A DNA stretch of 5,622 bases from a virus (IMGVR_UViG_2531839485_000005); one strand, 5' to 3'. Shown: positions 2,198-5,622, numbered from the stretch's first letter. Numbers and translations: made by a program. Notes: generated by a model not told the origin, from the sequence alone.

Positions 2198-2203
2198 TGG
2201 GGT
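2198..2203 (+). promoter_or_regulatory. Shine-Dalgarno-like sequence for stf
   Basis: G-rich TGGGGT lies 5 nt upstream of the ATG at 2208. Confidence 0.45.
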
Positions 2204-2207
2204 GAAT

Positions 2208-5200
2208 ATGGCAGTAAAGATTTCAGGTGTACTGAAAGACGGTGCAGGTAAACCGGTACAGAACTGCACAATCCAGCTGAAAGCAAAACGTAACAGCACC
2301 ACGGTGGTGGCGAACACGGTGGCCTCAGAAAATCCGGATGAAGCCGGGCGTTACAGCATGGACGTTGAGTACGGTCAGTACAGCGTTATTCTGTTGGTGG
2401 AGGGATTCCCGCCGTCACATGCCGGGACCATCACCGTGTATGAAGATTCCACCGGTACGCTGAATGATTTTCTCGGTGCCATGACGGAGGATGATGCCGT
2501 CCGAGGCACTGCGCCGTTTGAACTGATGGTGGAAGAGGTGGCGCGTAACGCGTCCGCGGTGGCACAGAACACGGCAGCCGCGAAGAAGTCAGCCAGCGAT
2601 GCCGGCACATCAGCACGTGAGGCGGCAACCCATGCGACTGATGCTGCAGGCTCAGCACGCGCAGCCAGCACGTCAGCCGGACAGGCCGCGTCGTCGGCTC
2701 AGTCAGCATCTTCCAGCGCAGGAACGGCATCAACAAAGGCCAGTGAAGCATCGAAAAGTGCTGCTGCTGCAGAGTCCTCAAAAAGCGCGGCAGCTACCAG
2801 TGCCGCTGCGGCGAAAACGTCAGAAACGAATGCGGCAGCGTCACAACAATCAGCAGCCACTTCTGCATCCGCCGCGACCACGAAGGCGTCAGAAGCTGCC
2901 ACCTCAGCCCGGGATGCGGCGGCTTCAAAAGAGGCGGCAAAATCATCAGAAACGAACGCATCCTCGAGCGCCAGTAGCGCAGCTTCCTCGGCAACGGCGA
3001 CAGCAAATTCTGCGAAGGCGGCCAAAACGTCCGAGACGAACGCCAGGTCTTCTGAAACGGCAGCGGGACAGAGCGCCTCGGCTGCGGCAGGCTCAAAAAC
3101 AGCGGCTGCGTCGTCTGCCAGTGCCGCGTCAACAAGTGCCGGGCAGGCCTCAGCCAGTGCCACCGCCGCCGGAAAATCGGCAGAAAGCGCCGCATCGTCT
3201 GCTTCAACAGCCACAACGAAGGCTGGCGAAGCCACTGAACAGGCCAGCGCAGCAGCGAGGTCTGCTTCCGCAGCGAAGACATCCGAGACGAACGCGAAAG
3301 CGTCGGAAACCAGCGCAGAATCCTCAAAAACGGCTGCCGCATCGTCCGCCAGTTCGGCGGCGTCATCGGCATCATCGGCGTCTGCTTCAAAAGATGAGGC
3401 GACCAGACAAGCGTCCGCAGCGAAGGGCAGCGCCACGACAGCATCCACGAAGGCGACAGAGGCAGCTGGCAGTGCGACGGCGGCAGCACAGAGCAAAAGT
3501 ACGGCGGAATCCGCGGCAACGCGCGCCGAGACAGCGGCAAAACGGGCAGAGGATATTGCATCCGCCGTGGCGCTTGAGGATGCAAGTACGACGAAAAAGG
3601 GGATAGTACAGCTCAGCAGTGCGACCAACAGTACGTCTGAAACGCTGGCGGCAACGCCAAAGGCAGTAAAATCAGCCTATGACAATGCAGAGAAACGTCT
3701 GCAGAAAGACCAGAACGGCGCTGATATACCCGATAAGGGACGCTTCCTGAACAACATTAACGCGGTCAGTAAAACAGACTTTGCTGATAAGCGTGGTATG
3801 CGTTATGTGCGGGTTAACGCTCCTGCAGGTGCAACATCTGGAAAATATTACCCTGTTGTTGTTATGCGTTCTGCTGGCTCAGTAAGCGAACTGGCATCAA
3901 GGGTCATTATCACCACGGCAACGCGAACCGCAGGCGATCCGATGAATAACTGCGAGTTTAACGGATTTGTTATGCCTGGTGGCTGGACTGACAGGGGGCG
4001 TTATGCTTATGGAATGTTCTGGCAATATCAAAACAATGAACGAGCCATCCACTCAATAATGATGAGTAATAAGGGCGATGATTTGCGCTCTGTGTTCTAT
4101 GTTGATGGCGCTGCTTTCCCTGTTTTTGCGTTTATCGAAGATGGCCTGTCAATATCCGCACCTGGTGCTGATCTCGTTGTTAATGATACGACCTATAAGT
4201 TTGGGGCAACAAATCCGGCGACTGAATGTATCGCGGCGGACGTTATCCTTGATTTTAAGAGTGGGCGTGGTTTTTATGAGTCTCATTCGTTAATCGTTAA
4301 CGATAACTTGTCGTGCAAAAAACTTTTTGCCACAGACGAAATTGTAGCGCGTGGTGGTAATCAGATTCGAATGATAGGTGGGGAGTATGGGGCATTATGG
4401 CGTAATGATGGCGCTAAAACTTACCTGCTGCTTACCAATCAAGGTGATGTTTATGGTGGCTGGAATACATTAAGACCGTTTGCTATTGATAACGCAACCG
4501 GCGAACTGGTTATTGGAACCAAACTGTCCGCAAGTCTGAACGGTAATGCATTAACAGCAACAAAGCTGCAAACGCCAAGACGGGTTTCTGGTGTTGAGTT
4601 TGATGGTTCCAAAGATATTACTTTAACCGCCGCGCATGTGGCTGCTTTTGCCAGAAGGGCAACGGATACATATGCCGATGCGGATGGTGGCGTTCCCTGG
4701 AATGCCGAATCAGGCGCTTATAATGTCACCCGCTCTGGCGACAGCTATATTCTGGTTAACTTCTATACCGGAGTCGGAAGTTGCCGGACCCTGCAGATGA
4801 AGGCGCATTACAGAAATGGTGGTCTGTTCTACCGTTCTTCAAGAGACGGTTATGGTTTTGAGGAAGACTGGGCAGAAGTTTATACCTCGAAAAATCTTCC
4901 ACCAGAAAGCTACCCAGTCGGCGCACCAATCCCGTGGCCATCAGATACCGTTCCGTCTGGTTATGCCCTGATGCAGGGGCAGACTTTTGACAAATCTGCC
5001 TACCCGAAACTTGCAGCCGCTTATCCGTCAGGCGTGATCCCTGATATGCGTGGCTGGACGATTAAGGGCAAGCCCGCCAGTGGTCGTGCCGTATTGTCTC
5101 AGGAACAGGACGGCATAAAATCGCATACCCACAGCGCCAGCGCATCCAGTACTGATTTGGGGACGAAAACCACATCGTCGTTTGATTACGGCACTAAATC

Positions 5201-5600
5201 CACGAATAACACTGGTGCGCATACCCATAGTTTAAGTGGCAGCACGAATGCAGCTGGTAATCACAGCCATAGAGATGGCCGTCGATTTAACCCCAGTGTT
5301 TTTAAAGATACTTATCAATATGGTTATACAAGCTCAGGTCAAAATACCTGGGGTGTACAAGGCTCAGTAGGTATGTCTACGGGGGCGTTAGCTAATACCA
5401 GTACAGATGGTAACCATAGCCACTCACTGTCCGGCACAGCAGCATCTGCAGGTGCACACGCACATACTGTCGGTATTGGTGCACACACGCACTCCGTTGC
5501 GATTGGTTCACATGGACACACCATCACCGTTAACGCTGCTGGTAACGCGGAAAACACCGTCAAAAACATCGCATTTAACTATATTGTGAGGCTTGCATAA
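2208..5600 (+). CDS. stf: Side tail fiber protein (lambda Stf family): conserved N-terminal attachment domain, Ala/Ser-rich repeat shaft, distal receptor-binding region with HxH motifs
   Basis: One continuous frame. I prefer the ATG at 2208 ([26 protein letters not shown]..., the characteristic N-terminus of lambda-type side tail fibers) over the GTG at 2202 used by the ORF track. It contains a long low-complexity shaft, the motif [27 protein letters not shown], and C-terminal HxH repeats. It ends at TAA 5598-5600, overlapping the start of a tfa-like gene. Confidence 0.92.
2610..3575 (+). repeat. In-frame tandem array of 23 degenerate 42-nt (14-codon) repeats inside stf, encoding the Ala/Ser/Thr-rich fiber shaft
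   Basis: Cutting the translation into 14-mers from the codon at 2610 gives units that nearly all begin S-A, S-E or S-K ([14 protein letters not shown] / [14 protein letters not shown] / [14 protein letters not shown] / ... / [14 protein letters not shown] / [14 protein letters not shown]). The K(T/S)SETNA motifs start at 2814, 2940, 3024 and 3276, spaced exactly 3x, 2x and 6x 42 nt apart. Confidence 0.8.
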
Positions 5601-5622
5601 TGGCATTCAGAATGAGTGAACA
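5600..5622 (+). CDS. tfa: Tail fiber assembly chaperone Tfa, N-terminal codons only (3' end outside window)
   Basis: The ATG at 5600-5602 overlaps the stf stop (TAATG) and the frame reads M-A-F-R-M-S-E, which matches the N-terminus I recall for lambdoid Tfa proteins such as E. coli TfaR (MAFRMSEQ...). The position after stf is as in lambda. Only 7 codons are visible. Confidence 0.7.

Follow-up and report, generated by a model that had tools for sequence, protein, structure and literature searches.

A candidate T4 gp37-type iron needle at the tip of a lambdoid prophage side tail fibre

Introduction

The last approximately 230 residues of the side tail fibre protein (Stf) of a lambdoid prophage are identified here, by sequence comparison, as a putative metal-stapled, receptor-binding needle of the T4 type. 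Residues ~902–1132 very probably correspond to the iron needle tip of T4 gp37, that is, to a trimer with seven iron sites and a distal head whose assembly would depend on Tfa. The observations behind this reading are the His-x-His (HxH) motifs themselves, the homology to gp37, the conservation of the histidines, a variable cassette, the coupling of strand lengths along the needle and the neighbouring tfa gene. The structure of gp37, its seven irons, the HxH iron sites and the homology between lambda Stf and gp37 are all published, and current understanding is unchanged by the identification of the needle in this protein. A probable host-range determinant is placed at nucleotides 5271–5414, between predicted iron sites 3 and 4, and this could be useful for annotation and for engineering, where one tip cassette might be replaced by another inside the conserved His-box flanks with Tfa retained.

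Locus and domain organization

The window, by which the whole 5,622-base stretch of analysed DNA is meant, covers the end of a lambdoid prophage that carries the tail-fibre genes, and all positions are counted from its first base. The ORF list gives the C-terminal part of J (up to 1476), followed by a Lom/Ail-family gene (Lom-like ORF, 1544–2143). The side tail fibre gene stf (2202–5600, plus strand; 1132 aa from the GTG at 2202) was assigned from the ORF list, Pfam and DNA matches, and the first 23 bases of tfa (5600–5622, plus strand, MAFRMSE...) from the sequence and homologous loci. Both the prophage tail fibre N-terminal domain and the J-lom-stf-tfa order that mark a lambdoid Stf were found. 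The gene order is common to the window, lambda and the prophage of E. coli ES7, and the N-terminal domain is likewise the same in the Stf of lambda (Ur-lambda; orf-401/orf-314), which is also accompanied by Tfa.

Across its entire length the window shares 98.4–98.7% identity with prophages of those E. coli chromosomes that match it best, and of 5426 complete genomes 901 contain 80% or more of it. Its last 922 bases (4701–5622) show 98.3% DNA identity to the side tail fiber/tail fiber assembly protein region of Escherichia phage PhiR34_1. The J gene of the window appears to be frameshifted (near position 700), so the prophage may yield no infectious particles and its stf may be out of use. Apparent indels are also present in stf, at 2451–2517.

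Residue numbers used here are counted from the GTG at 2202 (translation of 2202–5597). The true start of stf is likely to be the ATG at 2208 (MAVKISG, as in lambda), in which case all residue numbers would be two lower. The protein begins with a phage_tail_N domain (aa 3–134, plus strand; Pfam PF08400, E = 7e-60), and a composition scan detected an Ala/Ser/Thr-rich, low-complexity shaft (approximately aa 121–470; 2562–3611, plus strand) in which these three residues make up 63–83%. This shaft of about 350 aa, in a protein of 1132 aa, is a point of difference from lambda Stf. Two long antisense ORFs (2699–3628 and 2794–3585) overlap the shaft and are probably compositional artefacts. Tandem Repeats Finder detected no DNA tandem repeats in stf, and recent tandem duplication of DNA was therefore rejected as a source either of the shaft or of the 9-residue periodicity of the HxH motifs described below.

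Further along, a Gp34_trimer-like domain (aa 663–762; 4188–4487, plus strand; Pfam PF21446, E = 3.4e-27) and a segment resembling the tail fibre protein S of phage Mu (aa 835–908; 4704–4925, plus strand; PDB 8ju3, E = 2.5e-18) lead into a Collar domain (aa 907–954; 4920–5063, plus strand; Pfam PF07484, E = 6.9e-12), which aligns to gp37 from residue 811 on (2XGF). A collar of this gp12 type is shared with short tail fibres (PF07484; match to 9cuy). N-terminal of the collar Stf is lambdoid and unlike gp37, and the virion would be that of a siphovirus-type prophage.

The seven His-x-His motifs and their counterparts in T4 gp37

An earlier note on this DNA had listed seven HxH motifs near the end of Stf, and translation of 2202–5597 yielded exactly these seven and no others: HTH at 5124 (residue 975), HTH at 5220 (1007), HSH at 5262 (1021), HSH at 5415 (1072), HAH at 5457 (1086), HTH at 5484 (1095) and HGH at 5511 (1104). 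The spacing of the final three is exactly 9 residues, as had been observed. The cluster spans codons 975–1106 (132 codons) and is followed by a further 26, so that the motifs lie within the last ~158 codons and not, as had been noted, within the last ~130. A G-(A/N)-H-x-H-(S/T) context had been attributed to most of the motifs; it is complete in four of the seven (1007, 1072, 1086 and 1095), and glycine occupies position -2 in six.

Fourteen of the 20 histidines of Stf sit in HxH motifs. The biased composition of the region is the one feature that would favour reading the cluster as a chance product of a Gly/Ser/Thr/His-rich tail. Against this, seven or more motifs never arose when the last 170 residues were shuffled 100,000 times (mean 1.07, compared with 0.34 on shuffling the entire protein), the motifs correspond position by position to those of gp37, and their histidines are near-invariant in homologues. 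On these three grounds chance or composition was rejected as the origin of the motifs, and we regard it as scarcely credible.

The resemblance to gp37, which had first been suggested as an analogy, proved to be true homology. In a phmmer search against PDB, Stf residues 902–1132 matched the gp37 receptor-binding tip (2XGF) with E = 5e-86 (2xgf_A; query 69–299 against chain 27–242), and 156 of 216 aligned residues are identical (72%). With gp37 numbering taken as the 2XGF chain index plus 784, which was verified by the correspondence of H145/H147 to the H929/H931 named in PMC6957217, all 14 HxH histidines of Stf align with gp37 H883/885, 915/917, 929/931, 966/968, 980/982, 989/991 and 998/1000, so that the seven HxH pairs of the one fall on the seven of the other. 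The collar and linker are identical to gp37 at 60 of 72 residues. The block with motifs 1–3 aligns without gaps to gp37 883–931 (40/49 identical), as does the block with motifs 4–7 to gp37 966–1000 (25/35 identical), and the C-terminal tail shares 23 of 26 residues with gp37 1001–1026. The two proteins therefore have in common a homologous collar, needle and C-terminal tail, seven HxH motifs at identical alignment positions, and spans of equal length on the outbound (46) and return (32) strands. They differ in the distal part between sites 3 and 4, the head, which comprises 34 aa in gp37 and 48 aa in Stf and is essentially unrelated, being identical at 8 of 34 aligned positions.

According to PMC6957217, the needle of gp37 contains seven coordinated iron atoms along its length, and PMC11705849 likewise describes the iron as held by paired histidines. 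The number of irons in gp37 that had been given in the earlier note is thus correct. Substitution of either H929 or H931 by alanine is lethal in T4, and no plaques are formed (PMC6957217). This pair is named explicitly in that study; for the remaining six, we infer their role as iron sites from the match of seven motifs to seven irons.

The Pfam Phage_fiber repeat (PF03335) falls below its gathering threshold on Stf (18.8 versus 20 bits), with a single stretch at aa 1002–1015 around motif 2. Annotations of this repeat are present on Stf homologues.

Proposed structure and metal sites

By analogy with the gp37 structure, the tip of Stf would consist of a collar built by three chains and a long, slender needle with a small head at its far end. 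Each chain would run out along the needle through HxH motifs 1–3 (H975/977, H1007/1009 and H1021/1023; 5124–5270, plus strand), form the head (aa 1024–1071; 5271–5414, plus strand), and come back through motifs 4–7 (H1072/1074, H1086/1088, H1095/1097 and H1104/1106; 5415–5519, plus strand). Both needle strands were delimited from the gp37 alignment. The chain would then end near the collar in the conserved C-terminal tail (aa 1107–1132; 5520–5597, plus strand), which was delimited from the same alignment and from the needles of the family. At each of seven levels, one HxH motif per chain would contribute to a set of six imidazoles around one buried iron, in octahedral geometry on the three-fold axis. 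The metal sites would maintain the register of the chains and lend rigidity to a needle nearly devoid of a hydrophobic core. Receptor specificity would reside in the head, the hypervariable part that separates site 3 from site 4, and trimerization would require Tfa. This model takes the geometry of the trimer, the kind of metal, its structural role and the dependence on Tfa from the structure of gp37 and the literature.

An AlphaFold2 monomer prediction of aa 902–1132, made with a 34-sequence alignment, gave an unusable model (mean pLDDT 41.7, pTM 0.16) with almost no secondary structure, which is expected of an obligately intertwined trimer.

An octahedral Fe(II) site of six histidines, formed by three symmetry-related HxH motifs, is known from gp37, P2 gpV, phi92 and R-pyocin fibres, where the metal has been proposed to preserve chain register and add rigidity to the fibre (PMC6116203). 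The same axial arrangement of three HxH motifs occurs in the shaft of the R1/R2 pyocin fibre, P2 gpV, phi92 gp138 and, with zinc, T4 gp12, but each of these has one site in another fold context, whereas the needle of Stf, of the gp37 type, would have a succession of seven.

The gp12 case bears on the metal itself, for the same fold and six-histidine sites could hold, at one or more of the seven levels, a metal other than iron such as Zn, Ni or Mn. The HxH site of gp12 contains zinc in the crystal structure (PMC6116203), and the metal is not identifiable from sequence alone. Yet zinc was observed in refolded gp12 alone and may stem from refolding in a zinc salt, iron is the usual occupant of HxH sites in the fibres listed above (PMC6116203), and the needle blocks of Stf are about 70–80% identical to those of gp37, in which iron is reported. 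A non-iron metal is thus considered unlikely, and iron is kept in the model.

Needle length and the predicted out-and-back topology

Variation in needle length among relatives provides a further view of the proposed topology. A search run without a profile on 1.84 billion cluster representatives returned 883 relatives at E <= 1e-10, among which complete needles carry 5, 6, 7, 8 or 10 HxH motifs. For 143 distinct needles of the family with 4–8 motifs, the span between the first and last HxH motif was measured separately on the outbound and the return strand. Although these spans range over 32–56 and 18–41 residues, respectively, the outbound span exceeds the return span by 14–16 residues in 140 of the 143 needles, and the three exceptions are cases in which a histidine has been lost or gained. 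The offset is retained in at least six distinct length classes, the 140 needles being kin and not independent events. In all 143 distinct needles the final HxH starts 29 residues from the C-terminus, leaving 26 residues after the motif.

The unit of this variation is visible in the sequences, as extra outbound 10-mers of the form SFDYGTKxxx are paired with extra return 9-mers of the form xIGAHxHxx. The outbound strand of the Stf described here contains one SFDYGTK unit. Lambda Stf, which is 71% identical to it across the C-terminal module, has eight HxH motifs instead of seven, with an extra SFDYGTKTTG on the outbound strand and an extra IGAHQHPVV on the return; conserved HxH motifs in lambda had been reported earlier (PMC11705849). 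Residues 578–774 of lambda Stf have also been modelled on 2XGF (PMC7291167). An antiparallel needle that runs out and back requires coupled outbound and return lengths, and the coupling is therefore indirect evidence that the family as a whole, Stf included, has the topology of gp37.

Conserved histidines and an exchangeable tip

A homologue search with Stf aa 902–1132 returned 1804 proteins at E <= 1e-5, and conservation was assessed in the 93 distinct sequences among the best 120 of these. In this set of close homologues each of the 14 HxH histidines is 96–100% conserved (99–100% in motifs 1–3 and 96–100% in motifs 4–7). Mean column entropy is 0.23–0.24 bits in both HxH blocks as against 2.0 bits at aa 1024–1071, the segment between them. 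Relatives carry one of several discrete types of cassette at this place, 45–53 aa long and with common flanks, and the cassette of lambda Stf differs from that of the window. The hypervariable distal tip cassette (aa 1024–1071; 5271–5414, plus strand), delimited from the alignment, the entropy and the relatives, is predicted to be the receptor-binding end. The earlier note had placed a receptor-proximal needle tip at the C-terminus; the needle tip is upheld in substance, but, because the chain would go out and return, the distal end is predicted to be the loop between motifs 3 and 4 and not the extreme C-terminus.

The divergence of the tip is also seen in the DNA. In a comparison with phage mEp332, identity falls to ~55% in 5241–5420 while the flanks are mostly 97–100% identical, with recovery through the region of motifs 4–5, which places the borders of the divergent cassette in the region of motifs 2/3 on one side and of motif 4 on the other. 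This pattern, together with the existence of several discrete tip cassettes with common flanks, is what would be expected if the GxHxH blocks were kept mainly as DNA recombination sites ('His boxes') for cassette exchange, with metal binding secondary or absent. Tetart, Krisch and colleagues are said to have described the His boxes of gp37, in 1996–98, as endpoints of recombination and duplication; a search on 'His box' in gp37 found nothing in the literature available. However, the histidines are invariant even in relatives that are 57–65% identical, while the middle residue of the motif varies (T/S/A/G/N/Q/K/D) and the histidine codons are a mixture of CAT and CAC, which argues for selection on the histidine side chains at the protein level and not on a DNA word. 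The lethality of the T4 H929A and H931A substitutions described above also counts against a mainly recombinational function. The two roles are compatible, and recombination would be an added role, not a replacement. It is therefore very unlikely that exchange of cassettes accounts for the motifs in place of metal binding, and conserved metal-site histidines flanking an exchangeable head remain the preferred reading.

In gp37 the receptor-contacting tip subdomain was mapped by mutagenesis to approximately residues 929–960, between motifs 3 and 4, and contacts with its receptors, LPS and OmpC, map to surface residues of the tip (PMC6957217). This location also weighs against the published proposal that fibre iron is a functional bait for siderophore receptors (the 'Ferrojan/Trojan Horse' hypothesis), which is cited for HxH fibres (PMC11705849). 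In analogous solved sites, moreover, the iron lies in the interior, its coordination sphere filled by six histidines (PMC6116203). A bait function is accordingly held to be extremely improbable for Stf, and a structural function of the metal is retained.

As the tip segment of Stf is both longer than that of gp37 and unrelated to it, neither the structure of the head nor the receptor is transferable from T4, and the receptor of Stf is probably different, to judge from the divergence of the head. A literature search on the closest phages, PhiR34_1, mEp332 and PhiR26_1, found no papers relevant to a receptor.

The variation in needle length and in the tip can be brought together in a single reading, to which we would give an even chance. 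Needles of this family would be built of quantised rungs, each a unit of about 10 aa outbound (SFDYGTKxxx) and about 9 aa on the way back (xIGAHxHxx), giving 5, 6, 7, 8 or 10 predicted metal sites. Recombination within the conserved flanking His boxes would exchange a receptor-binding cassette of 29–67 aa that lies between invariant sites, and the cassette of the window would be one specificity allele.

The Tfa chaperone

As the earlier note had indicated, tfa lies directly downstream of stf. Its ATG at 5600 overlaps the stf stop codon (TAATG, 5598–5602), and tfa is probably translationally coupled to stf through this overlap. T4 has the equivalent arrangement, with a chaperone gene directly downstream in both cases, gp38 in T4 and Tfa here, and Tfa is the assembly factor of lambda Stf (PMC7291167). 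At one homologous locus (L002, 98.6% identical), the place of tfa is occupied by a 194-aa Caudo_TAP protein (PF02413, E = 6.8e-44). This protein is 95% identical to lambda Tfa, though the tip cassette of the locus differs from that of lambda. Such near-constancy of the chaperone across different cassettes suggests that Tfa may recognise conserved parts of the fibre, either the needle or the C-terminal tail, and not the tip.

Start codon, indels and shaft of stf

The ORF finder placed the start of the side tail fibre gene stf at a GTG at 2202, but examination of window positions 2202-2210 against lambda and RefSeq relatives showed that in these the gene starts at an ATG, which lies at 2208 in the window (MAVKISG...). 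A start at this ATG would give an Stf of 1130 aa. Further into the gene, comparison with both lambda and the prophage locus of E. coli ES7 (L002) revealed that the window lacks a CGA at 2451 and is one base short at each of 2497, 2503 and 2517; two of these single-base gaps fall within short runs of C or T. The sum of these indels is in frame, and across 2451-2517 a short stretch of 14 residues differs in the window from the DDARPEALRRFELMV of L002 and lambda. These differences look like compensated frameshifts or sequencing errors.

The low-complexity shaft of Stf follows at 2562-3611 (approximately 350 aa), with an Ala/Ser/Thr content of 63-83% and four SETNA motifs. A DNA tandem repeat was sought in this region and none was found. 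Examination of both strands showed a long ORF of 335 aa in another frame of the plus strand (2599-3606) and antisense ORFs of 309 and 263 aa on the minus strand, and these overlapping frames are probably compositional artefacts.

Frameshift in the J gene

The J gene (1-1476) carries a frameshift near 700, where the window lacks two nucleotides (GA) that are present in E. coli ES7, whose gpJ is intact. The open frames of J in the window are frame 3 (1-732) and frame 1 (677-1476), and the change of frame leaves the C-terminal ~258 codons, which are receptor-binding, out of frame. The frameshift reflects either prophage decay or an assembly error.

Tip cassette allele and unusual relatives

Within the hypervariable tip cassette, aa 1062 (window 5385-5387) is Ala (...MSTGALANT...), whereas Trp occupies this position (MSTGWLANT) in most of the clusters that share the cassette. 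Both alleles are common, and the Ala form is identical to the database cluster P0001, which has 981 members.

Several other database relatives are unusual in their architecture. P0006/P0012, P0039, P0040 and P0066 are proteins of ~325-400 aa that end in the collar and HxH C-terminus but carry at the N-terminus a Pfam domain unrelated to it (Terminase_GpA, ParB, major head protein or Lom), and P0012 is present on 480 contigs. These short fusions may have arisen by deletion within prophages, or they may be artefacts of gene calling. In P0121 (938 aa), needle modules stand in tandem as one and a half copies; the first comprises the collar and motifs 1-3, followed by a tip that begins differently, and after a junction at 'QWV|' a second, complete Stf C-terminal half follows. 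Such an arrangement suggests that the fibre is either recombinant or misassembled.

Beyond the window, the chaperone gene tfa in E. coli ES7 is directly followed by genes for a reverse transcriptase and a SLATT-domain protein (L002 10305-12204). At the end of a prophage tail-fibre module, this pair looks like anti-phage defence cargo.
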